DNA of 59,110 nt, the filler included, from an uncultured virus (IMG/VR IMGVR_UViG_2061766007_001796) (Duplodnaviria > Heunggongvirae > Uroviricota > Caudoviricetes). It is 6 parts of one record of this genome, joined end to end, with 100 filler letters (N's around TTAATTAATTAA, not from the genome) between each part and the next. Parts side by side here need not be neighbours in the genome. Positions count along the whole stretch, not along the records: positions 19,244 to 32,254 come from IMGVR_UViG_2061766007_001796; 5 more parts are not named here. One strand, written 5' to 3'. Below the pieces are notes generated by a model. That model did not search any database. It saw only the letters and a program-made list of their open reading frames with translations, and was not told the origin of the DNA. This document shows, in pieces, positions 18,206 to 33,858 of the stretch; the first letter of the stretch is position 1; each line of letters begins with the position of its first letter. The translations under genes and the position numbers were made by a program.

Positions 18206-18958
18206 ATGAAAAATGAAAGCCTTTTTTATGTTTATGAATGGTTCGTTAAGAATACTGGCGAAGTCTTTTATGTTGGTAAAGGTTGCGGTAATAGATATAA
18301 AAGCACATCTAAGCGAAATAAGTGGTTCAAGGACTATATTAAAGCGTTTGAGTGCGAAGTAAGAATTATCAAACGTTTTGAAAACGAAGAAGAAGCGTTT
18401 GCTTTTGAACATAAAAGGATTATGGAACTCAAAGCGAGCAATTTAGCCAAAGCAAACCTTGATTATGGTGGCAAGGGTGGCAGTCATTTTGATTGGACTG
18501 ACGAGATGAAACAATACAAATCAGAGTACAACCCTATGAAATCATTTGAGCAACGCCAAAGAATGAAAGAAAATAACCCTATGAAGAACAAGCAAACGCA
18601 AGACATCGTTTACAATAAAACAAGAAAAAAAGTAGTCTTAAATGGTGTTATTTATAGTGGCGTTTTAGAGGCTTCACGAGTGACTAAGCACACAAGCAGT
18701 ACGATAGTTAAGTGGTGCAGACGTGGTTATGATAACAATGGCAAGCCTTGCAGGTATTTTAACGAAACACAAAAAGAAATACCTCTGGTTAAACAACTTC
18801 ACCCAAAATCAGCAACACCAAAAGCAGTCGTTGTAGACGGGGTTAGATTTGAAACGGTAGAAGACGGTGCTAAACATATTGGTGGCAACAGCAGTAATCT
18901 TATAAGGGCAATAAAAGCACATAGAGCGTATCTAGGTCACACTTGCTCATACGCATAA
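18206..18958 (+). CDS. GIY-YIG homing endonuclease with C-terminal NUMOD-like DNA-binding repeats
   Basis: YVYEW...FYVGKG..NR, later E (AFAFEH) and N (LANL..GG.G); NPM repeats; two HTH-like repeats. Confidence 0.8.
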   Translation: MKNESLFYVYEWFVKNTGEVFYVGKGCGNRYKSTSKRNKWFKDYIKAFECEVRIIKRFENEEEAFAFEHKRIMELKASNLAKANLDYGGKGGSHFDWTDEMKQYKSEYNPMKSFEQRQRMKENNPMKNKQTQDIVYNKTRKKVVLNGVIYSGVLEASRVTKHTSSTIVKWCRRGYDNNGKPCRYFNETQKEIPLVKQLHPKSATPKAVVVDGVRFETVEDGAKHIGGNSSNLIRAIKAHRAYLGHTCSYA

Positions 18959-19143: not shown

Positions 19144-19243
19144 NNNNNNNNNNNNNNNNNNNNNNNNNNNNNNNNNNNNNNNNNNNNTTAATTAATTAAN
19201 NNNNNNNNNNNNNNNNNNNNNNNNNNNNNNNNNNNNNNNNNNN

Positions 19244-19790
19244 ACACCAAGAACAACTTGCCAATGATAATGACCGTTTTCAAAGCATTACAACCATGCT
19301 CACTCAAGCAGATAGCGTTGATAGTATGAACAGCCTTTTGACTGACTATGGTTATGGTTCAGTTGACGCTAATGGCGAGTTCCAATGGGGTCAAAAACCA
19401 GCGGGTATGTCTGATGATGATTGGTATCAAATGAGATATTACTATGGTCTCCAAAAGAACGCTCTTGACCAAATGACTGGTTCAGCAAATACTCAATGGG
19501 CTGATAGATTGTTCCAACTTGGTGAATTAAAAGAAAAAGATGGTACATCTTTAAAAGAACTTACTCAAGCGCTTAACGCCAATTCGGCGACTAACCGTTA
19601 CGAAATTACTGGTGACGCTGAGTTAAAGAACTTCTATATGACTGCTAATAATGGTGACATTGCACAGATAAATACTGACGATGAGACAAAATACTGTATG
19701 TTTTATAATGGCAAACTTTATGTTGTTGATAGCGATTTAGTTAAAGGCAGAAAGCCAACCGTTGTAACAACGCTAAAAAGGAAAAAGTAA
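19244..19790 (+). CDS. Probable internal virion protein, C-terminal part, alternative allele
   Basis: Matches 21787-22030, then has a divergent C-terminal domain. Confidence 0.6.
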
Positions 19791-19810
19791 TCTCTTGAAA
19801 GGAGTTTGAC

Positions 19811-20345
19811 ATGCCTTCAAGAAACGAATATTTACAATCTTTAAATAGAATGAGGGCGAATTACCAAAACCAAGGTAATCCTCTTATTAACAGAGAAGAC
19901 GATAATGGCAACGTAGGAAATGAGTTATCCGCTTTTGCCTATATGAACACAACGCCAACCTCGTCAGCGTCTGAGCAAGCAAGCAAGCGAAGCGATTTTC
20001 TGGGCAAAACATTTGGCGCTATTGACGAGATTGCTTTTCAATTTGGCAGTGGCTATGTTAATGGCTGGGAAGGTGGCTTAGATTTAGGCGCTAACTTTTT
20101 AGGTTGGGCAACTAAAAACGACGACTTTACCAAATGGGCTAGACAAGATTTAGGTGCTGAAGCGGGCAGATTTATTCAAACCTACGCAAACCTAACTCCT
20201 TGGGCAATTGTTAATAATATTAGACAAGGAAACTATGCTGATAGAGATTGGTGGGGTAACGCTGTCGGTGGATTTGGCGACATTATGACATCTGCTTTTG
20301 GCGGTTGGGACGCTAACCAAATCGTTCAAGGCATTTTATCTGGTG
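19811..20345 (+). CDS. N-terminus of the giant polyvalent protein, alternative allele
   Basis: AAGGAG RBS; near-identical to 22343-22875. Confidence 0.7.
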
Positions 20346-20537
20346 NNNNNNNNNNTGGTGTTAACGATTATAATAAAAGACTTGTAGAATTAGACAGTGG
20401 TGCTGGTAGTGCTGGTGGTAGTGCTAATCCTTTTGCTAATCCCACCGCAGTTCAAGGCGCTGGTAGCACACCAAANNNNNNNNNNAAAGTCTTTAAGTTG
20501 CTCAAGAGAGGCTTCTTCAATAATCTTACGGTGCATA

Positions 20538-20695
20538 TTAGTCAAGGTATTCGACTGCGATAGCGATATTAGATGTAGTGATAGCGACACCAGTGTTGAC
20601 CACTGTTAATGTGACAGCAGAAGAGTTGCATGGCACTCTGACAATAGCGTCGAAAGATAGGCTACCCACTTGTGTTGTAGCAGTAATTGTTATGC
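20538..20695 (-). pseudogene. C-terminal remnant of a small beta-rich protein (resembles BclA C-terminal-like phage proteins); contig inverted
   Basis: Reverse complement matches 18954-19002 directly after the endonuclease; no start codon available. Confidence 0.45.
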
Positions 20696-20851
20696 NNNNN
20701 NNNNNNNNNNNNNNNNNNNTAAAGCAAACGCCATGAAATACACTCAAAACCAAATCAACGCTCAAGGTTTTGGAGGCACTGGTTATGGTTCTTCAATGCA
20801 AGGTGGTATCTATAACGCATATCTAAATAGATTNNNNNNNNNNAACTCATG

Positions 20852-21255
20852 AGCAACTTAAAGAGTTCGCTTATAGAGCCTTCGACATGATTAAAAGAAA
20901 CGTAGACGAAGAAACTTATGACGACATTGAATTGTTGCTTTATAAGGACGTTTATGGCTATCACTTTACCAAGTGGTTATTAGAGAAAGCATATTGTTGT
21001 ATGGAAAATGAAGATGGCACTAAAGGCGCGCATTGGTCGCTTGAGCAGACGAACAACGTTGCCAAAAATAATGGCGTCACCTTTGAACATTTCAACGAAT
21101 ATGACTGGAACTATGTTATGAATATGATGTATAGCGATTACTACAAAGCGGGTGGTAGCGATGTCAATTTTTATGTCGAACTTGCTAAAGCGTTTTTAAT
21201 GGACAAAGACGCTCCCGAAGGGAAGGCATTAAAATACTACCTTGCAATGAAATAA
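20852..21255 (+). CDS. Conserved hypothetical phage protein (GAHWS...YDWNYVMNMMYSDY); N-terminus MHRKIIEEASLEQLK lies on the inverted fragment 20486-20536
   Basis: Overlap gagcaacttaaaga between the fragments; followed by a terminator. Confidence 0.7.
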
Positions 21256-21261
21256 CACAAT

Positions 21262-21290
21262 AGGGGTTGTCCTAGACAGCCCCTTTATAC
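21262..21290 (+). terminator. Intrinsic terminator
   Basis: AGGGGTTGTC-CTA-GACAGCCCCT hairpin followed by a T-rich run. Confidence 0.7.
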
Positions 21291-21369
21291 TTTTTTTGTA
21301 TTTATTTATATAAATAATTAGTGTAAAAACTATCTTGAGAGATAGTACGCGTTTTTAAAGGAGAAAATT

Positions 21370-22321
21370 ATGGCAGGTGTTAACGATTATAATAAAAGAC
21401 TTGTAGAACTAGACAGTGGTGCTGGTAGTGCTGGTGGTAGCGCCAATCCTTTTGCTAATCCCACCGCAGTTCAAGGCGCTGGTAGCACACCAAAAACAAA
21501 CCCAACTGGTTCAACAACCGAAGATTATTACAAATTAGCGAGAAATCAAGAATATACCGCTCTTTTAGATAGGGAAGTTCAACTTGAAAACGCCAAAGCA
21601 AATGCCATGAAATACACTCAAAACCAAATCAACGCGCAAGGTTTTGGAGGCACTGGCTATGGTTCTTCAATGCAAGGTGGTATCTATAACGCATATCTAA
21701 ATAGATTAGGTGAGGCTCAAAACCAAACTGCTAGCAATGTTCAAAACCTCAACATGCAAGANNNNNNNNNNTCTCAACATGCAAGAACACCAAGAACAAC
21801 TTGCCAATGATAATGACCGTTTCCAAAGCATTACAACTATGCTCACTCAAGCAGATAGCGTTGATAGTATGAATAGCCTTTTAAACGATTATGGCTACGG
21901 CACAATTGACGCTAATGGTGAGTTCCAATGGGGTCAAAAACCAGAAGGAATGAGCAACGATGATTGGTATCAAATGAGATATTATTATGGTCTCCAAAAG
22001 AACGCTCTTGACCAAATGACTGGTAACGCAAACGAACAATGGGCACAAAAGGCTATCTCAATGATGGGTAACGGTGAAAAAGGTATGGACTATCAAAGTA
22101 TGGTTAAAACAATTAAAAATACAACCAATAATGGCTTTAATGTTCCAGCCGAAAACATTAAGAGTTTTTATATGAATGCTAACAATGGTGACGTTGCCGA
22201 AGTTAAATATGGTGACCAAACCGCTTATTATGTCTACTACAATGGTCAACTTTACACAGTAGACAAAGAACTCCTTAACGGCAAAACACCAAAAGAAACT
22301 TGGGAACTTTCACGTGTTTAA
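21370..22321 (+). CDS. Probable internal virion (ejection-type) protein, split by gap at 21762-21771
   Basis: AAGGAG RBS; Gln/Asn/Gly-rich helical N-terminus; precedes the giant protein. Confidence 0.6.
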
Positions 22322-22342
22322 TGATTTCTTGAAAGGTGATTT

Positions 22343-25300
22343 ATGGCTTATTCAAGAAACGAATATTTGCAATCCTTAAATAGAATGAGGGCGAATTACC
22401 AAAACCAAGGTAATCCTCTCATTAACCGTGAAGACGACAATGGCAATGTGGGCAATGAATTGTCCGCTTTTGCCTATATGGGCACAACTAGACCAGCGCC
22501 TGAGCAAGCAAGCAAGAGAAGCGACTTTTTAGGCAAAACTTTTGGTGCTATCGACGAAATCGCTTTCCAATTTGGTAGTGGTTATGTCAATGGTTGGGAA
22601 GGTGGCTTAGATTTAGGTGCCAACTTTTTAGGTTGGGCAACTAAAAACGACGACTTTACCAAATGGGCAAGACAAGACCTAGGTGCTGAAGCGGGTAGAT
22701 TTATTCAAACCTATGCAAACCTTACTCCTTGGGCAATTGTTAACAACGCTAGGCAAGGAAATTACGCTGATAGAGAATGGTGGGGTAACGCTGTCGGTGG
22801 CTTTGGTGACATCATGACTGCGGGTTTTGGCGGTTGGGACGCTAACCAAATCGTTCAAGGCATTTTATCTGGTGGTGTTTCTACAATCATGGCTTTAATT
22901 GGCACTGGTATTACTGCTTTAGGGAACGCTATTGATGGCAAAGATAGAAAAGCCGACGCTTATGTGGACAATAGTTTTGAAAATGATAAAAACGAAAGAT
23001 ATGGTTTTGACACATCCGCAATTAGTGACACTGAGGCTGGTCAATTTGTTGGTGGCATAGCGCATTCTATTGGTGAAATGCTCCCATCTATTCAAATTGG
23101 CGCGGTTGCTGGAAGCGCTTTTAAAGGTGCTGGTATTGGTGGTAAGGCTTTAAAATACGGAACAAAAGGTATTTCTACTGGCATGATGGCGTTATCTGCG
23201 TCTGGTCATGGTACAAACGAGGCGTTGGAGGCTGGAGCAAGCAAGGGCAAGGCGCTCGCTTTTGGGATGGTGTCTGGCGCGATTGAAGGTGCTACTGAAT
23301 GGATATTCCCAGATGGTGGTGTCGGTGGTGTTAANNNNNNNNNNCGGTGGAAAGGCTTTGAAATACGGAACAAAAGGCATTTCTACTGGCATGATGGCGT
23401 TGTCTGCGTCTGGTCATGGTACAAACGAGGCGTTGGAGGCTGGAGCAAGCAAGGGCAAAGCGCTCGCTTTTGGTATGGTGTCTGGCGCAATCGAAGGTGC
23501 TACTGAATGGATATTCCCAGATGGTGGTGTCGGTGGTGTTAAGGTTGGTCAAAAAGCCTTAAAGAAATCAATTGTTAAAGAACTTGCTAAAGAAATGATT
23601 GAAGAAGGCACTGAAGAAATAATTAGTGAACTCTTATCTCCAGTCACAAAAATGATTTATGATAGTGACGCCTACAAAGAATACACTACTGGTGAATACT
23701 GGAAACAAGTTGCTCTAGCGGGCGCTAGTGGCGCAGTAAGCGGTGGCATTATGTCTGGCATACAAGGCGTAGGAAACCGCGCTAAATACGGTAAAAACGG
23801 CACTGCTTTTTTAGAGCACACTGAAAACGTTGCTGACTTAGAAGAACAATACAACAAAGCCAAAACGCAAGAACAAAAACTGGCAATCGCTCAACAAATT
23901 GAAGCCGAGACCAAAGAAATGATGTCTTCTTTAAAAGAAATGGTTGACGACAAGACTGAAAGCGGTAAAAGAAAACTCACAAGCATGCTTGAGCAGTTAG
24001 GCGCGATTAACAAAAAATCTAATGTCGCTATTGAAAATCAAGTTCAAAGTGGCGTTGAAAATCTAAATAAAGAATATGGCAACGTAGAGGCTGAAAAGGC
24101 ACTTCCTAAGAATGAGGAAACCAAATATACAATCCCAACTGACGATACATCCAAAATCATGGAAACAAAGTTGGAGAACGAAGATGGTAGCGCAAAGCGC
24201 TATGTTTTGGCTGATAAACCAGACGAGGTTGGCAATCAAGTAATTGCTCCAGCAACATCGTCAGACGAAACATCATTTTTTGTTTATGCAAAAAAACCAT
24301 TGTCAGAGGTCAATCTCACTAAAGAATTGTCCTTTGAAAAGATGTCCAAAAAGTTCAATATACCAACTTCTTTAGAAAAAACTTATTCAAAAAAACTTAC
24401 GGACAAAAACCCTTTATCCGTTATAAAGTTTATTAGTAGGTACGCTAAAACCGACGTTCAAGGTGTCTTGGCTAGACTAGGCTACGACGCTTTTGAATAC
24501 AAAGATGGCAGAGTTATCATTGCTGATAACAAACAACTGGTTAAAGGAGACTTAAAATATGGCGAAACAAAAGGAACAAATGATTACAGCAGTCTTGTCA
24601 AACGGCTTGGTCGTGAGAGTGCCAATGAAGAACTCGGAAGATACATTGGCAAAGATGGAAGAGAACTTAAAACACCACAAGAAAGACAAAGATACGCACA
24701 ATTAGTTAAAGATAATCGCGCATACGATACTGAAAGCATAAGCAAAAAAGGTAGTTTTTTGGTCGTTGATAATCAAGTATATTCAAAAGACATGCTTGAA
24801 ATTGCCAAAAACAACAACAAACTAGGTGCTGAGACAAAGTTTATTATTGATAATAATAACGTTTTCAAATTATGTAGTGGTTTTTATAACAACGATGGCA
24901 CTATTTATCATATCTTAAATAGAAACGACAATAGGTCGTTAAAAATGCGTAATGACCACGAAGTATATCACTACTTAGACGAAGTATATCACTTATCTGC
25001 AATAAGCAATGTACTTGACCTTTTAGAAGATTGGAAAACCAGTTATTCCGAGGAATATCAAAGTTGGTATAACAAATATGAAGAAGCATATACTGGCAAG
25101 TACAATTTAGAAGACATGTTCACAATGCTTGACGACGAACTTCTTGCGGAGATTTATAGTAGAAGCATTACATTAGAAGATTTCACGCTACAAGAAAAAA
25201 TTATTGACACAGTCAACAAAGTTAGAGACATGGGTCAAGAAAAGGCTCAATCGCTATTTGTTAAAAGCATTGAAAGCGACAACTTTAAGCCAGTTACAGT

Positions 25301-27475
25301 TAGATACACGGTAGATAATGGTGTTGAAAATTACGATGGTAAGACCACCGTTGAGAGCGACCCAACGTTAAGTGAAGAAACAAAAAACGGCTTTGAAAAG
25401 GCTAAAAACAAAGGCAACGATGTTCTTAAATTACTAAAAAATAAACCATTGCCTATTGTTGAAAACGACAACAATCCAAATCAATATGTCATGGTTGCGC
25501 CTTTATATAAAGCAGACGTAAAAACACCTAATGAGTTCTATTCCTTATCAAAAGACGTCTATCCCGCTTTTACTAAAAACATTAAAAACATTGCTAAACT
25601 TGCGGGATGTAAGTTCGATGGCAATAAAGCACGTGGTATCTACACAAATAACAGTGATTATAGAGTAAGAGAACCATCCACTCTAATTGACTTAGGCAAG
25701 GTCGACGCTAGCAACGCTGACTTAGCGGGTTCCTTAATGGCAGACTTAGGCTATCAGCAACAAGAAAGTGTAATCATATACAACTACGTAAGCGAGCAAG
25801 AGTTTGACCAACTAGACAAATATAACCAAGCAATTGCTTTTGAGGTACAAATACCAAAAGGCAAAGCCAATAAAATTGTTAAAGCCTTTTACGAACAAGG
25901 CATTGACGCAACCGTATTAAAAGATAAAATAGTATTTCTTAAGAGTTGTGTGTTTGACTTCGGAACAAACGATAACTATGATGTAACCAAAGCCGAAAAC
26001 TTTAAGAAAGAATTGACCAGTTTGTGTGATAGACTAATCAAGGAGGGTACACTTAATGGCAAGACGGAAGAAATTATCTCAATCCACCAAGTCAACGAAA
26101 GGTATCTCGTGGAAGGAGATAGAGAAAACATTTACCTTCAAAACGAAAGAACCATCACCGCTAACGAAGGAAAAAAAATTATAAGTGATTTAAAAGCCAA
26201 ATCAAGCACTGTTTTGATTGAGGCTGGTGCGGATGTTAGCAAGAGTGTGAAATATCGCTTAGACAGCGTGAAATCCGCGTTTGAGAGTGCATTAGCACAA
26301 GTAGTACCAGATAATGGCTCGTATACATTGCGTTTTTCTGACGCAAAACAAAGTTTTGCTGAATTAAATCTAGCAAGACCTAAAGACAGAGCCATCGCAA
26401 TAGATAATTTAATTAAACGCTTAAAATCTACTGAAGTGACTTTAGTGGATGTTTTTGGCGAGGAAAAAACAACATTGGGCGAATTGCTAAGTCCAGAGCA
26501 AGAAAAACAAGCACGTGACATCATGCTTAGCACGCTTAATGGCAAAGCCGAACCTACCAAACTTGCTAAGTGGGCAAGAGCGTTAGGCTTGCAAAAAATA
26601 AAGACACATGAAACCGCTCGCTCATTTAAGTTAATGAGAAGCATTCAAAACAAAATCAGTCACGGCACAGTCAATTATTTGTCAACGTTTACTGACGCAG
26701 TTGGCGAACTTACATTATTTGATAATGTCATTAAGGAAGTTAAACTCCCATTCACAAACGCGAGTATTTTAAGTCTTGCTAATAATATCGCCACTTGTTA
26801 CACCGCTGATAACTTTGGCAAAATGTTGAGTGATTATGGCGTTCCATATAATGACGACGTTTATGATAGAGCGGTTGCTTTAAAAGAAACCATCCAAAAA
26901 GGTAGACCTCTTACTGCCGAACAAATTACTGAGGCAAACAACATCCTCCAACTTATTAAAAACGACCTCACTGAATTAGAAAAAGCGGGCATTGCAAACA
27001 AACGCACAAAGGCACGCGATGGCGTTGTGCTTGCTCAAGCACAGGAAAAAGCAGGGAAAAGCGGTCTTGCCACAAAGATTACCAATCTTGGTCGTGCGTA
27101 TTATTTAAACGTTGCGTCACCAGTCAATCAGTTTGAAACATATTGGGGTGATAATCACCCAGCAACGGTTCATTTGCGCGACACTGCTAATGAGGTTAGC
27201 AACCAAAAGATTAAAGACATTGAAATGCTTAAAACCAATTTTTATGGTGATAAGAACGGTGAGCAATCAATTAGAAATAAAGCAAAGACCGCTAAAAAGA
27301 TTAACTTTAAAGGTTACAAAATCACTGTCGCTAATGCTTTAAAGATTATCAACACTGAAATGACCGCTAACGCTGATTATCAAGACGTTGATTGGGAAAA
27401 ACGCCCATTCTATAAGCGTGGTGGCGCTATGACAGTAGGCGCTAAGCGTGTTGACATTGATTTTACTCCACAAGA
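22343..27475 (+). CDS. Giant polyvalent / internal virion protein, allele A (Gly/Ala-rich N-terminus, HExxH peptidase, variable cassette, helical region)
   Basis: Overlapping fragments 22343-23334 and 23345-27475; HEVYH at 24957-24971 with downstream ELLAE. Confidence 0.7.
24559..24705 (+). CDS. Nested +1-frame small protein MAKQKEQMITAVLSNGLVVRVPMKNSEDTLAKMEENLKHHKKDKDTHN (48 aa)
   Basis: AAGGAG RBS; conserved in allele B with 12 synonymous codon changes. Confidence 0.75.
   Translation: MAKQKEQMITAVLSNGLVVRVPMKNSEDTLAKMEENLKHHKKDKDTHN
26056..26184 (+). CDS. Nested +1-frame basic peptide MARRKKLSQSTKSTKGISWKEIEKTFTFKTKEPSPLTKEKKL (42 aa)
   Basis: AAGGAGG RBS; stop coincides with the end of the allele-A cassette; no second allele to test. 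Confidence 0.5.
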   Translation: MARRKKLSQSTKSTKGISWKEIEKTFTFKTKEPSPLTKEKKL

Positions 27476-27485
27476 NNNNNNNNNN

Positions 27486-29667
27486 TAAAATTAGTCACGG
27501 CACAGTCAATTATTTGTCAACCTTTACTGACGCTGTGGGTGAACTTACATTATTTGATAATATCATTAAGGAAGTTAAACTCCCATTCACAAACGCTAGT
27601 ATTTTAAGTCTTGCTAATAATATTGCCACTTATTACACTGCCGATAACTTTGGCAAAATGTTGAGTGATTATGGTGTTCCATATAATGACGACGTTTATG
27701 ATAGAGCGGTTGCTTTAAAAGAGACCATCCAAAAAGGTAGACCTCTTACTGCCGAACAAATCACTGAGGCTAACAACATTCTTCAACTTATTAAAAATGA
27801 CCTCACTGAATTAGAAAAAGCGGGCATTGCAAACAAACGCACAAAGGCGCGTGATGGTGTCGTGCTTGCTCAAGCACAGGAAAAAGCAGGGAAAAGTGGT
27901 CTTGCCACAAAGATTACTAACCTTGGTCGTGCATATTATTTAAACGTTGCGTCGCCAGTCAATCAATTTGAAACATATTGGGGTGATAACCATCCAGCAA
28001 CGGTTCATTTGCGTGACACTGCTAATGAGGCTAGCAACCAAAAGATTAAAGACATCGAAATGCTCAAAACCAATTTCTATGGAGACAAGAATGGTGAGCA
28101 ATCAATTAGAAATAAAGCGAAGACCGCTAAAAAGATTAACTTTAAAGGTTACAAAATCACTGTCGCTAATGCTTTAAAGATTATCAATACTGAAATGACC
28201 GCTAATGCGGATTATCAAGACGTTGATTGGGAAAAACGCCCATTCTATAAACGTGGTGGTGCTATGACAGTAGGCGCTAAGCGTGTTGACATTGATTTTA
28301 CTCCACAAGANNNNNNNNNNNNNTTTTAATGAACAAGTTAAAAAGGGATTTAAGGAAAATGGCAAGTACCTCTCAAGCAAATATAAAGAACTTAACCATG
28401 TCCCATTAGAAATGGTTGAAGAGTATTACCCAACCTCCGCTGTGGGCGATAAAGCACCAGATATTGCAAACGCCATGAAAGGTTCCATTAGTCCACGTGA
28501 CTGGGGCATTGCGTTCATGCAAAAGCGTGTTAGCCGTACTAATGCTCGTTATAATTTAGATGGCGACGTCTTTAGAGATATTAACAATCAAATTGAAACA
28601 TTAACTAACTGGGCAAACTTTGCCCCTTGGTATAGAGAATGGACAACCATTCTTAATAGTTCGCCATTTGGCAAGGGTAGTTCGTTATATGCAATTGGTT
28701 GTAGGTCTATTTATGGCTTCAAAGAATTAGTCGATTTTATCAACAAGACCGCTCTCGGTATTCCATATATCCAAAATACTTCCTTACTATCTAAAGCCGA
28801 CAATACGATTGGTGGCGTTTTTGGTAACTTAAATGCCGTCGCCATGAGCGGTCTATTTACCCAACTTAAAACATGGGGTTCTTACTTTACTGGATGGCAA
28901 TTCTTCACACCTAGAGACATTCTCGCTGGTTATGCAGAGTTTGCACGTCACGGTGGCGAAGTCGTAGCAGACAAGTACGCTCGTAAAGTTATTAACGAAA
29001 ACTCGCCTATGCTCAAAGCACGTGGCGAAAGTAGTGAGGCATTCAGTGCTAACGTAGGCAAGCGAGTAAAGAGTAAAGCGGGCTATTATTTCACTACGGT
29101 TGTGAGAACTAGTGACCGTCTAATTCACGACAAAGCATTCTTTACTTGCTTAGCAAAAGTAAAAGCCGACCCACAATATAAAGGCTTAAGCGAAGCCGAA
29201 TATGAACGCAAAGCCGTTAAACTTCTTGAACAATATAGTGAAAAGACCCAACCAACAACCGCTAAGTTTAATGTTGGTATGTACCGCTCTGGTTACAAAG
29301 GTCAAATCCTCAAACAATTCGCTGGTATGTTCCAATCTATGGGTCAAAATATCTTCCAAGGTTTTGTGGACGTTACTGCTAAGTTCGTGCAAGGCAATAG
29401 ACGTATTAAAGGATTTAGAGCAAGCATTGAAGAAAACATCCGTAAAGCCAAAGAATATCAAGCGCTTGAGAACGAAGCACTTGAACGCATGGACAACGCT
29501 ACATCCGATAGTGAATATATTAAGGCACAAAAAGATTACGAAGAATACAAGTTCCACCGTGAAGGTCACGAAAAGTCTCGCGCAACACTTGAGCAAGCAC
29601 TCGAGCAAGAAAAAGGTAAGTGGACAGCCAAAAAATGGGTAAGCAAATCTTCCACATATCTCTCTGG
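27486..29667 (+). CDS. Giant polyvalent protein, middle and C-terminal fragments
   Basis: 27486-28310 is an allele of 26651-27475; 28324-29667 continues it. Confidence 0.7.
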
Positions 29668-29677
29668 NNNNNNNNNN

Positions 29678-32254
29678 CGCTTTGAAAGAAATGGTTGACG
29701 ATAAGACCGAAAGCGGTAAGAGAAAACTCACAAGCATGCTTGAGCAACTAGGCATGATTAACAAAAAATCAAGCGCTTCGATTGAAAGCCAAGTTGAAAG
29801 TGGCGTTAAAAATCTTAATCAAGAGTATGGCAACGTAGAGGCTAGAAAAACGCTTCCTAAAAATAAAGAAACTAAATACACAATCCCAACTGACGATACA
29901 TCTAAAATCATGGAAACAAAGTTGGAGAACGAAGATGGTAGCGCTAAGCGTTATGTTTTTGTTGACGAACCAGACGAGTTCAATAATAGGATTATTGCTC
30001 CAGCAACGACATCTGATGAAGGGACGTTCTTTGTCTACGCTAATAAGCCACTAAACGAAGCAAACCTTAGTAAAGAACTCTCTTTCAAAAAGATGTCCAA
30101 AAAGTTCAATATACCAACTTCTTTAGAAAAAACTTATTCAAAAAAACTTGCGGACAAAAATCCGTTTTCCGTTATAAAGTTTATTAGTAGGTATGCTAAA
30201 ACCGACGCTCAAGGTGTTTTGGCTAAATTAGGCTATGACGCATTCGAGTATAAAGATGGCAGAGTTATCGTTGCTGATAACAAACAATTGGTTAAAGGAG
30301 ACTTAAAATATGGCGAAGAAAAAGGAACCTATGATAACGGCAGTCTTGTCAAACGGTTTGGTCGTGAGGGTGCCAATGAAGAACTCAGAGGCTACCTTGG
30401 CGAAAATGGAAGAAAACTTGAAACAGCAAAAGAAAGACAAAACTACGCCCGACTAATTGAAGCCAATAAGGCTTATACTGAAAAACACATACATAGGCAA
30501 GATGTTCTTATTGCTGATAGTAAGGCATATACCGACGATATGTCTAAAATCGTCAAGTCTAATAACGATTTAGGAGTTGACACGTTCTTTTATGTTAAAA
30601 AAGAAGGTCTTTCTAAAGCAAGTGGCTTTTATGAAAACGATGGCAGTATCTATTTAAGATTAAATACCTATGATAATAGAAGTTTAGAACAACGTAATGC
30701 CCACGAAATGTATCACTATCTTAGTGACCAATTCTATGTTCGCGCAATTACTAACCTAGACGACATTTATGACGAGTGGGCTAAAAAATACCCAAAAGAA
30801 TACGGCAAGTTTTTTGAACAATATCTTATTGCGTATACTGGTGTATACGAAGACTTTGCTATCGAAGATATGATTAAAGAAGAAATCATTGCCGAGATTT
30901 ATAGTCGTAGTATTACCCTACAAAATCAAGACTTGCAACAAGCAATGATTGACACAATTAACAAAGTCAGAGATATGGGCAAAGCAAAGGCGCTCAAATT
31001 ATTTGGCGAAAGTGTTACAAACGACAACTTTAAACCAATTAAAGTTAGTTATACAATTGAAAAAGGAGAAAACGCAAATGAGTTTAGACAACTTCAAAGA
31101 GAAAGTCGAAAAGAACTTAAAACAAAGAGTTGGCGAGAAAGAAGCCAAGCGCTTAATGAAGAGTTACGAGGACGACTTTCAAGAGTTCTTGGACAAGAAC
31201 TTGAGCGTCGTGGCTACGGCAACGGCAATGATACAAGGGTACTAAACCTTGGTGATTTTTCTGTATTTAAAAATGTTGATGGTAAAACATTCCACGACAT
31301 CTTTGAGATTGCTAGAACTTATTTAGAAAATGGCGAACTTGTTGATTTACATCCAGTTAAATCAACCGAAGATACATTAGGATATAAAGACACACGTAAT
31401 TTCTTAACCAAAGACGGCATGTGTGGTTTTGCTATTACTAAAGACGGGGATTTAATCTCCGTATTTAATGCTGGTTCAAAACGTGGTTGGCTAAGAGCAA
31501 TTAAACCATATATTGATAAACATGCTAAAACGTTGGATTGCTATGCTTCTAACAAGCAAAACTTGCCAGAAATGTATAGCAAACTTTTAGGCTTTAAGAC
31601 CGCTTCTTTGATGGATTGGAACCAAGATTATGACCATGACAATATTGGCGCTAATCATGGCAATCCTAAAGTTGCCTTTATGGTGCGTTCTAACCAAGAT
31701 GTTGAAATGAAAACGTTTGGTAAAGACCAATATGACGAAGCGGTTGCATATAGAGATAGCGTGCTTAAGCAAGCAAGCGAACCAGAAAAAATCATCAGCA
31801 ACATAAAAGCCAAATCTAGCAACGTTTTAATTGAGGCTGGTGCAGACGTTAGCAAGAGCGTGAAATATCGCTTAGACAGCGTAAAATCCGCATTTGAGAG
31901 TGCGTTAACACAAGTGGTGCCAGATAATGGCTCATACACATTGCGTTTTTCTGACGCAAAACAAAGTTTTGCTGAGTTAAATCTTGCTAGACCAAAAGAT
32001 AGAGCCATCGCCATAGATAATTTAATCAAACGCTTAAAATCTACTGAAGTGACTTTAGTGGATGTTTTTGGCGAGGAAAAAACAACATTGGGCGATTTAA
32101 TAAGTCCAACGCAAGAACAACAAGCGCGCGACATTATGCTTAGCACACTTAACGGCAAAGCCGAACCTACTAAACTTATTAGATGGGCAAGAGCGTTAGG
32201 CTTACAAAAAATAAAGACACATGAAACCGCTCGCTCATTTAAGTTAATGAGAAG
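29678..32254 (+). CDS. Giant polyvalent protein, allele B (HExxH peptidase plus GNAT-like cassette)
   Basis: Collinear with 23930-26642; HEMYH at 30702-30716 with EIIAE; GFAITKDGDLISVFN...LDCY...LPEMYSKLLGF. Confidence 0.7.
30310..30456 (+). CDS. Nested +1-frame small protein MAKKKEPMITAVLSNGLVVRVPMKNSEATLAKMEENLKQQKKDKTTPD (48 aa)
   Basis: AAGGAG RBS; 40/48 identical to 24559-24705. Confidence 0.75.
   Translation: MAKKKEPMITAVLSNGLVVRVPMKNSEATLAKMEENLKQQKKDKTTPD
31078..31245 (+). CDS. Nested +1-frame helical protein MSLDNFKEKVEKNLKQRVGEKEAKRLMKSYEDDFQEFLDKNLSVVATATAMIQGY (55 aa)
   Basis: AAAGGAG RBS 9 nt upstream; starts at the 5' boundary of the allele-B cassette. Confidence 0.6.
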   Translation: MSLDNFKEKVEKNLKQRVGEKEAKRLMKSYEDDFQEFLDKNLSVVATATAMIQGY

Positions 32255-32354
32255 NNNNNNNNNNNNNNNNNNNNNNNNNNNNNNNNNNNNNNNNNNNNTT
32301 AATTAATTAANNNNNNNNNNNNNNNNNNNNNNNNNNNNNNNNNNNNNNNNNNNN

Positions 32355-33858
32355 CTTTAACGAACAAGTTAAAAAAGGATTTAAAGAAAACGGCAAGTAT
32401 CTCTCAAGCAAGTATAAAGAACTTAACCACGTTCCATTAGAAATGGTTGAAGAGTATTACCCAACCTCTGCTGTGGGCGATAAAGCGCCAGATATTGCAA
32501 ACGCTATGAAAGGTTCCATTAGTCCACGTGACTGGGGCATTGCGTTTATGCAAAAGCGTGTTAGCCGTACTAATGCCCGTTATAATTTAGATGGCGATGT
32601 TTTTAGAGATATTAACAATCAAATTGAAACATTAACTAACTGGGCGAACTTTGCTCCTTGGTATAGAGAATGGACAACCATTCTTAATAGTTCGCCATTT
32701 GGCAAAGGTAGTTCATTATATGCAATCGGTTGTAAGTCCATCTATGGATTTAAAGAATTGGTCGATTTTATCAACAAGACCGCTCTCGGTATTCCATATA
32801 TTCAAAATACTTCCTTACTATCTAAAGCCGACAATACGATTGGTGGCGTTTTNNNNNNNNNNNNNNNNNNNNNNNNNNNNNNNNNNNNNNNNNNNNTTAA
32901 TTAATTAANNNNNNNNNNNNNNNNNNNNNNNNNNNNNNNNNNNNNNNNNNNNGAAGACATCTTATACAAACGAGCAAGGCGAGGAAATCAAACTCACAAG
33001 CGCNNNNNNNNNNGTATCGCGAAAGCGCTTTAGCAAGAGCAACTGGTATTGCACCTACAAGCAAACTAGGGAAACTTCTTTACTACACTAATGGCGATGT
33101 TGATATGGCTAAATACATTATGTCCCTCCAAAACTTATCGGTTATCAAAGAAGACAAAAAACATACTCGTAAAGAGAATGTTATCTCCGCGATTAACAAG
33201 ATNNNNNNNNNNGCCTACAAGCAAACTAGGGAAACTCCTTTACTACACTAATGGCGATGTTGATATGGCAAAATACATCATGTCACTTCAAAACTTATCG
33301 GTTATCAAAGAGGACAAAAAACATACTCGTAAAGAGAATGTTATCTCCGCGATTAACAAGATGGCAGGGTTTAATAGACAAGAAAAACTCTTGCTTGCGT
33401 ACTTAAGCGGGTATAATGTTAGTGAGAAGAACCAACAATCTATGATTATGTTCTTAATGAGCAAGGGCTTTGACAAAAAGACTGCCAAGGATTTCCTTAA
33501 AATTGAAAAGTAACCCAANNNNNNNNNNNNNNNNNNNNNNNNNNNNNNNNNNNNNNNNNNNNNNNNNNNNNNNNNNNNNNNNNNNGGTATTATCGTTCAC
33601 TCTTTCACACTAGAGTATCATTGCTTCGCAAATATAAACTAATATAGTTCACTCTCTACCAGTCATTACCACTAATTGACTGGTTTTTTGCTACCCACGA
33701 CGACCCNNNNNNNNNNCAGCAGACAAGAAAAACTCTTGCTTGCTTACTTAAGCGGGTATAATGTTAGTGAAAAGAACCAACAATCTATGATTATGTTCTT
33801 AATGAGCAAGGGTTTTGACAAAAAGACTGCCAAGGATTTCCTTAAAATTGAAAAGTAA
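32355..33858 (+). CDS. Further fragments and C-terminus of the giant protein (...KTAKDFLKIEK)
   Basis: 32355-32852 is an allele of 28324-28822; the C-terminus appears twice (stops at 33513 and 33858). Confidence 0.6.

Follow-up and report, generated by a model that had tools for sequence, protein, structure and literature searches.

To our knowledge, out-of-frame genes embedded in the genes of phages are known but almost never annotated, because gene callers forbid them. In Bacillus subtilis the giant surfactin synthetase gene srfAB harbours, in another reading frame, the 46-codon gene comS, which encodes a regulatory peptide whose target is MecA; among phages, spanin genes come in three architectures – embedded, overlapped and separated. 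The embedded form is that of Rz1, contained within Rz of phage lambda (PMC5295617, PMC6139136). A hidden out-of-frame HNH endonuclease has been described from the ShiLan insertion of a phage DNA methylase gene (PMC11855218), and the overprinted genes of small viruses have been reviewed (PMC8227390). For the polyvalent proteins of phages and plasmids, in which a zincin-like MPTase related to lethal factor is the commonest domain (Iyer et al. 2017, PMC5512222), the main text of the source does not use the term 'overlapping', and one of its two 'nested' passages concerns a hairpin fold. Here we consider a 48-codon open reading frame (ORF) on a 59,110-nt stretch of DNA (the window) from an uncultured virus (IMGVR_UViG_2061766007_001796). 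The ORF lies on the same strand as a giant, phage-type, polyvalent-like gene and in its +1 frame. On the strength of sequence comparison we judge it, with a probability of roughly 0.8, to be a genuine protein-coding gene embedded in that host.

The ORF is found twice in the window, in two variants of the giant gene (A and B; Table 1). Both copies, each with a ribosome-binding site, lie where an earlier reading of the window by itself (hereafter the original prediction) had placed them: the motif is a Shine-Dalgarno (SD)-like AAAGGAG at 9 nt from the ATG, and in both variants the nested frame holds an in-frame TAA two codons upstream of that ATG. The comparison between variants that accompanied the prediction could be reproduced. 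Eight of the 48 residues distinguish the two peptides, 12 sense codons have changed synonymously, TAG and TAA stand at one and the same position, and a 20-residue core, MITAVLSNGLVVRVPMKNSE, is identical in both. For the host frame across the span the prediction had given about 17 of 49 residues; our own count is of comparable size, 18 of 50 codons. In the +1 arrangement nested codon position 1 falls on host position 2. The 24 base differences within the 147 nt are distributed 17/3/4 over host codon positions 1/2/3, against 25/14/58 in the 630 nt upstream of the ORF: inside the span the differences peak on host position 1, which is the nested wobble position.

Both the ribosome-binding site and the ORF are retained in the more distant homologues that we examined, a point on which the original prediction had been made to depend. 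One of these (L001) is a JGI metagenome contig, the host protein of which shows 55% identity; the other (L002) is a contig of a Bacilli metagenome-assembled genome (MAG), with a host protein of 29% identity. The nested ORF of L001 has 48 codons and is preceded, 9 nt upstream, by GGAGGAG; that of L002 has 47 codons counted from the second ATG, with AAAGGAA 9 nt upstream; and each ends at the equivalent aligned position. The ATG, the 9-nt SD spacing and the aligned stop are thus kept at all four loci, across which host identity to variant A is 51-53% and 28%.

Evidence that selection acts on the nested frame came from a codon alignment of the four host segments, which provides six pairwise comparisons. 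Host third positions diverge far less inside the nested span than outside it (inside/outside 0.08/0.45, 0.12/0.54, 0.29/0.70, 0.12/0.58, 0.29/0.65 and 0.35/0.66), a dip that is significant in every pair (Fisher p 5.5e-5 to 8e-10), while divergence at host first positions is equal inside and outside. Scanned over 340 columns with a 25-codon sliding window, third-position divergence dips (minimum 0.15) at the nested span only. Identity of the nested peptides exceeds that of the host in all six pairs: 41/49 versus 32/50, 34/49 versus 30/50, 23/47 versus 17/49, 36/49 versus 31/50, 26/47 versus 21/49 and 19/47 versus 12/49. When the host proteins were kept and synonymous codons drawn at random, the nested identity was reached in a single one of 18,000 resamplings (0, 0, 0, 0, 0 and 1 of 3000 per pair). 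An OLGenie-style partition gave pNN/pNS of 0.16-0.50 for the nested frame and pNN/pSN of 0.68-1.00 for the host. Taken at the level of sequence, these comparisons show purifying selection on the nested frame across the four loci, and a host frame that, once nested constraint is allowed for, appears close to neutral over the span at those loci. The proposal of a real nested gene, more strongly constrained than its host frame, is therefore supported and also extended – by the four loci, the suppression of host-synonymous change, the codon periodicity and homologues from elsewhere.

The peptide has relatives beyond the four loci. A profile built from the four peptides, searched against 5.8 billion proteins, returned 15 candidates, among them five called small proteins (P0018-P0022, ENA data) of 44-62 amino acids with E-values of 2.5e-15 to 6.3e-13. 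A nine-member profile was then matched by two of the 399 genomes scored from the class of the MAG, by three of 401 from its order and by the same three of 401 from its family; the three are the MAG itself and two further genomes, G131 and G250. In G131 the homologue is a free-standing gene of 46 codons with GAAGGGGGA 8 nt before its ATG, situated in an intergenic stretch after an EAL-domain gene. A 106-codon ORF starts 36 nt downstream, and its product does not resemble the giant proteins (best E 0.034 and 2.2). In G250 the module forms the last 39 residues of a 159-amino-acid ORF that is followed directly, with no gap, by a Sel1-like ORF of 155 amino acids. The surroundings (G250:C2:221000-243000; L019/L020/L021) are a defence-type island: they contain an Eco57I-type methylase, a ResIII helicase with a GGACT domain, a PLD/DpnI_C nuclease, AbiEii and an AAA_11/12 helicase with DUF2726.

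Both of these loci lack the giant gene. Host segments gave no tblastn match there (best E 0.068), the host profile, scanned against 401 genomes from the order of the MAG, matched neither genome, and stops occur throughout the host-equivalent frame, whereas the peptides match at 6e-13 and 4e-10. Alignment of 11 members shows T10, L13, S14, N15, G16, P22 and E34 to be invariant, and in ten of the 11 a Met stands at, or within one column of, the ATG of the window; the exception is the fused G250 copy, which was cut at a later internal Met. The family core is 44-48 residues long and occurs nested, free-standing and fused. Judged by its sequences, the ORF belongs to a new small-protein family, members of which are also found away from any giant gene.

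These results bear on two other ways of accounting for the conserved span. The first is that the suppressed synonymous change marks a nucleic-acid element – an RNA structure, an internal promoter, a packaging or recombination site – with the open +1 frame incidental. Contigs of four other studies are nearly identical to variant A over 24196-24610 (0-1 differences per piece), a conserved block that begins upstream of the ORF and so fits such an element; over 23900-24208 pieces from the other studies differ from variant A at 29-33 sites. The nested span itself is barely covered by these contigs, two pieces reaching 24579 and 24610 with no differences, and no new variants were found among them when aligned to 23900-25300. 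A nucleic-acid element would not, however, yield the periodicity of the nested codons (17/3/4), nor peptide homologues where the host gene and its frame are absent, and promoter-like sites occur at chance level (3 found, 2.5 expected). We consider this explanation highly improbable.

The second is that the conserved residues are the tail of a product of +1 programmed frameshifting on the giant gene, a truncated N-terminal protein for which the SD-like site would serve as stimulator. SD-like sequences upstream of shift sites are known stimulators, as in prfB and dnaX, and an A-AAG slippery-like site is present a few codons into the ORF at three of the four loci. That site is absent from L002, so there is no conserved shift site, and at all four loci a nested-frame stop just upstream of the ATG would confine any shift to a few codons. 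The near-constant Met of the family, the spacing of 9 nt – the canonical distance for initiation – and the free-standing gene of G131, with an SD and ATG of its own, likewise argue against frameshifting, which we regard as very unlikely.

A number of observations nonetheless weigh against a nested gene, or at least limit the case for it. Only four loci with DNA are available, and three of them (A, B and L001) are closely related. The length of the ORF is in itself unremarkable, other stop-free +1 runs of 48-98 codons being present in the giant gene; with host protein and codon usage fixed, the span remained open in 3%, 8%, 11% and 77% of 5000 resamplings at the four loci, which makes openness alone weak evidence. 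The host frame over the span also appears conserved in distant homologues, so that the claim of near-neutrality is limited to the four loci. The peptide has no match in Pfam, PHROGs or NCBIfam beyond isolated single-member hits (NCBIfam E 0.00028; Pfam E at least 0.013), its sequence profile found nothing in the PDB better than E 0.056, and fold searches were no more productive (best Foldseek E 1.0; best Z 3.8 in a wide VIA-align search; no usable match in the ESM Atlas). Of the ten runs, from seven studies, listed as containing the stretch, none is an RNA dataset. Finally, the selected frame could be an antisense ORF that shares the nested wobble position (for example 24552-24701, minus strand), the sense ORF being its shadow. 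Counts of changed codons fit the two about equally (for example, antisense 11/9 versus sense 13/8; 7/16 versus 9/15), and in A, B and L001 no stop interrupts the antisense frame. In L002 it is interrupted mid-frame by a stop where the sense ORF is intact; it has TTG starts only, and no SD-like run is visible upstream; its translation abounds in Phe, Cys, Ser and Ile, the composition that the complement of Lys/Glu-rich coding would give; and it is in the sense frame, with proper starts, that the free-standing and fused homologues are encoded. The antisense reading is accordingly excluded by ORF integrity and start signals only, the synonymous and non-synonymous counts being unable to do so, and we allow it scarcely any probability.

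The 1426-codon host ORF of the window reads across N gaps; full-length relatives have about 2450 residues. A word-indexed protein search returned three relatives, including the window's own protein, and an exhaustive search 12, at 27-64% identity (the window's own aside), mostly of 2000-4100 residues with a few shorter fragments. One of the relatives, P0010 (683 amino acids), ends about 12 residues before the aligned nested start and may be a contig-end fragment, or a giant gene split just before the small gene. No relative was detected in the phage collection (megablast, tblastn), in a first scan of genome contigs, or among IMG/VR viral contigs searched by single protein, by alignment and by a degenerate DNA pattern of the dual-coded core. 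The host profile is matched by ten of the 401 genomes of the MAG's order, nine of them only via the variable cassette (profile positions 352-477) and outside the nested region. Neither the window's host protein nor four full-length relatives belong to a Pfam or PHROG family, and no second domain could be named in them.

Downstream of the nested ORF the giant gene encodes an HExxH motif, and H256, E257, H260, E288 and E316 are invariant in all ten aligned homologues. In a model of the host segment a loop of low confidence (residues 122-138, predicted local distance difference test (pLDDT) below 50) takes up the first third of the overlapped stretch, and the remainder forms the first helices of a confidently modelled domain (140-365) that carries HEVYH. 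Fold neighbours by VIA-align included anthrax lethal factor (1yqy_A, Z 5.5, 167 aligned, root-mean-square deviation (rmsd) 7.5), PPEP-2 (6fpc_A, Z 4.5, 132 aligned, rmsd 4.7) and ArdC (6sna_A, Z 4.2), all below the level at which the tool is reliable; PprI, DPP III and lugdulysin were further weak neighbours, and the Z values of all six are such as, by the tool's own warning, common arrangements may give. Foldseek gave nothing for the domain at E up to 0.001. No curated peptidase family was matched in Pfam or PHROGs by the host or the four full-length relatives, and the PDB profile search had no matches at E up to 10. The invariant HExxH with its downstream Glu and the weak zincin fold matches are consistent with, without proving, the description of the domain as zincin-like.

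In size, HExxH domain and variant-specific cassette the host is compatible with a polyvalent protein. It had been called a virion protein, a designation that we treat as putative. In the Bacilli MAG (G001:C33:1-40000; L002/L015/L016) an intact giant gene of 1979 codons ends a block of about 10 kb in which it is preceded by an integrase, two repressor-like genes and a RecE-like exonuclease, in that order, and housekeeping genes (FGGY kinase, M24 peptidase, Mrp/ParA) border the block; virion genes are not among these neighbours. The block looks like a small integrated element or prophage remnant, and not a full prophage.

The original prediction went on to name the adjacent zincin-like domain as a plausible partner of the nested protein, which would act as its inhibitor, chaperone or substrate. 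Such a dedicated partner might, for example, keep a self-processing peptidase inactive until delivery. The ORF holds a constant position at all four nested loci, over the loop and first helices of the HExxH domain and with the motif 252 nt beyond its stop, and zincin-like peptidase domains, the commonest in polyvalent proteins, are predicted to process them (PMC5512222). A fixed position says little about function, since it is expected of any vertically inherited nested gene. A result against the proposal comes from the homologues that are not nested: neither of the two has an HExxH ORF (at least 70 codons) in the roughly 10 kb searched, the G131 locus being cut by a contig end, and their neighbours differ, a 106-amino-acid ORF in one and the Sel1-like ORF in the other. 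We found no support for a dedicated partnership, which we think unlikely.

For a small gene that is translated in its own right, the following may be envisaged. On the mRNA of the giant gene, ribosomes would initiate separately at the internal SD and ATG. The product would be a basic protein of about 5.5 kDa in which a beta-hairpin, with an invariant L-S-N-G turn and V/I-P, is followed by a single long amphipathic helix and by a tail rich in Lys. The window peptides have calculated masses of 5.4-5.5 kDa, isoelectric points of 9.2-9.7 and no Cys (variant A: 5.5 kDa, 9.2). An AlphaFold2 model from a nine-sequence alignment (mean pLDDT 78) places a beta-hairpin at residues 8-22 (strands 8-12 and 18-22), with the invariant S-N-G at its turn, and a helix at 26-45. 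We take this hairpin-then-helix pattern to resemble the swapped-hairpin domain of the SpoVT/AbrB type. The model lacks the second strand pair of that domain; no SpoVT/AbrB-type family is among the Pfam matches of the nine members at E up to 5, and no AbrB/MazE-type chain among the best 50 VIA matches listed (best Z 3.8). An identity as an o-spanin (Rz1 proper) was considered and rejected, there being no lipoprotein signal with a lipobox Cys: neither window peptide has such a residue, and the one Cys among the 11 members, in P0021, is not N-terminal.

More tentatively, the protein could be a small binding or regulatory subunit in phage-host conflict, its hairpin docking on a partner – a guess prompted by a host gene of polyvalent type and by the homologue in a defence island. 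Where the gene is nested, that partner might conceivably be the giant protein.

Two origins of the overlap can be considered: birth of the ORF within the giant gene, with a copy exported afterwards, or extension of the giant frame over a small gene that already existed. The word 'overprinted', used in the original prediction, holds in so far as the gene is nested and selected; the de novo birth inside the host that it can imply becomes one of two possibilities because free-standing relatives exist. A small gene of greater age would be in keeping with a host frame that is nearly neutral and with disorder where the overlapped stretch begins, and against this has to be weighed the fact that the host stretch aligns gap-free in all ten homologues. 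A stronger version, which we hold to be doubtful, is that the small gene is the older, that the giant frame came to be read across it, fusing the two into one gene in which the small member retained its ribosome-binding site, and that both proteins still cooperate, the small one for instance as a trans-acting lock on, or helper of, a self-processing zincin domain. If true, giant phage genes would in part be operons fused into one frame and still hiding their small members.

Some features of the window itself need to be borne in mind. It is a chain of contigs and scaffold pieces joined via 75 runs of N, and not one continuous genome; some runs are 44N-TTAATTAATTAA-44N linkers between contigs (examples in Table 1), and the rest are mostly 10-N gaps inside scaffolds, together with longer runs. 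Both copies of the nested ORF fall in a single scaffold (19244-32254), in separate gap-bounded pieces that are 60-98% identical per 60-nt window up to about 24700. They are most likely two co-assembled strain variants, rather than two loci of one genome. The 'two alleles' of the original prediction are both present, but as pieces of a mixed bovine-gut assembly separated by gaps within one scaffold: the runs containing the stretch are labelled bovine gut metagenomes.

Table 1. Positions of the nested gene, its start signals and associated features in the window
Feature	Position	Strand	Remarks
Nested gene, variant A	24559..24705	+	48 codons + TAG; +1 frame of giant gene
Nested gene, variant B	30310..30456	+	48 codons + TAA
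SD-like AAAGGAG, variant A	24543..24549	+	9 nt before nested ATG
SD-like AAAGGAG, variant B	30294..30300	+	9 nt before nested ATG
HEVYH motif, variant A	24957..24971	+	252 nt downstream of nested stop
HEMYH motif, variant B	30702..30716	+	host zincin-like domain
Giant host gene piece, variant A	23345..27475	+	gap-bounded
Giant host gene piece, variant B	29678..32254	+	gap-bounded; collinear with 23927-26640 of variant A, offset 5751
Linkers (examples)	19144-19243, 32255-32354, 32853-32952		N runs + TTAATTAATTAA

Within this scaffold the same phage genes recur in alternating pieces that come from at least two strain variants. The giant gene has two starts, at 19811 and 22343, and 26652-26951 matches 27487-27786 at 94%. 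Beyond the shared HExxH domain the variants are largely unrelated and of unequal length (about 24710-26160 in A, about 30460-31770 in B) and then re-converge: 26160-26459 and 31773-32072 match at 89%, the offset now being 5613 instead of 5751. This variant-specific stretch looks like a swappable cassette. Two antisense ORFs of 168 and 167 codons inside the giant gene (26138-26644 and 31655-32158, both minus strand) may be shadow ORFs of a Lys/Glu-rich coding strand. In contigs from two other studies (runs X5 and X8) one base is missing at 24020 and one is inserted after 24027, which is a compensated frame change over two to three codons of the giant gene. Elsewhere the window encodes a tail-fibre-repeat protein and, directly before a contig linker, a 250-codon ORF (18206-18958, plus strand) that matches the PHROG homing-endonuclease family phrog_314 (E 4.9e-14).

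The comparative evidence makes a strong case for an embedded gene inside a giant, uncharacterised phage gene of the bovine gut, and the overlap offers a genetic handle: a change in a Tyr codon that is synonymous for the host would remove the nested start and leave the giant protein untouched. Giant polyvalent-type phage genes may commonly hide small genes; if so, both their annotation and the reading of their 'linkers' would change. With the polyvalent proteins of Iyer et al. the host shares its size, an invariant HExxH domain, weak fold neighbours of the lethal-factor/PPEP kind, variant cassettes and a phage or integrative-element setting. It departs from them in having no Pfam or PHROG match anywhere, and its packaging into virions would be conjectural.

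How does the arrangement compare with embedded genes already described? Like Rz1 within Rz, the nested ORF has start signals of its own and is entirely enclosed by a larger phage gene, being read from the same strand in the +1 frame; as with the spanins, some members of one protein family are embedded and others are encoded separately. Unlike Rz1, the nested peptide has no Cys, and hence no lipobox, and no hydrophobic leader is visible; unlike Rz, the host is a protein of about 2450 residues with an HExxH domain and not an inner-membrane spanin, any physical partnership of the two products being conjectural here. The setting differs too, for the sole named related record is a Bacilli MAG, and Bacilli-type cells are without an outer membrane. 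The likeness to comS is one of architecture – a gene of about 46-48 codons with its own start, out of frame in a very long Bacilli-type gene, its expression tied to the giant transcript – and no relation in sequence is expected; the host, moreover, is a gene of a mobile element and not a non-ribosomal peptide synthetase.

In the ShiLan case, as far as the cited account describes it, a phage frame likewise runs stop-free across a segment coding in another frame, and the embedded gene has relatives elsewhere. There the homing insertion is present or absent among alleles, whereas here the segment is gap-free in ten of ten homologues, and the nested peptide has no match to a nuclease family. With the overprinting of small viruses, in the outline that the review provides, our case has in common two proteins drawn from the same bases and an asymmetry of constraint between the frames; it differs in that the embedded frame is the more constrained and has free-standing homologues, and because of these birth within the host is not the sole possible origin. 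The architecture is therefore one already known from Rz1/Rz, comS/srfAB and the ShiLan HNH gene: what is new is the small-protein family that it carries.

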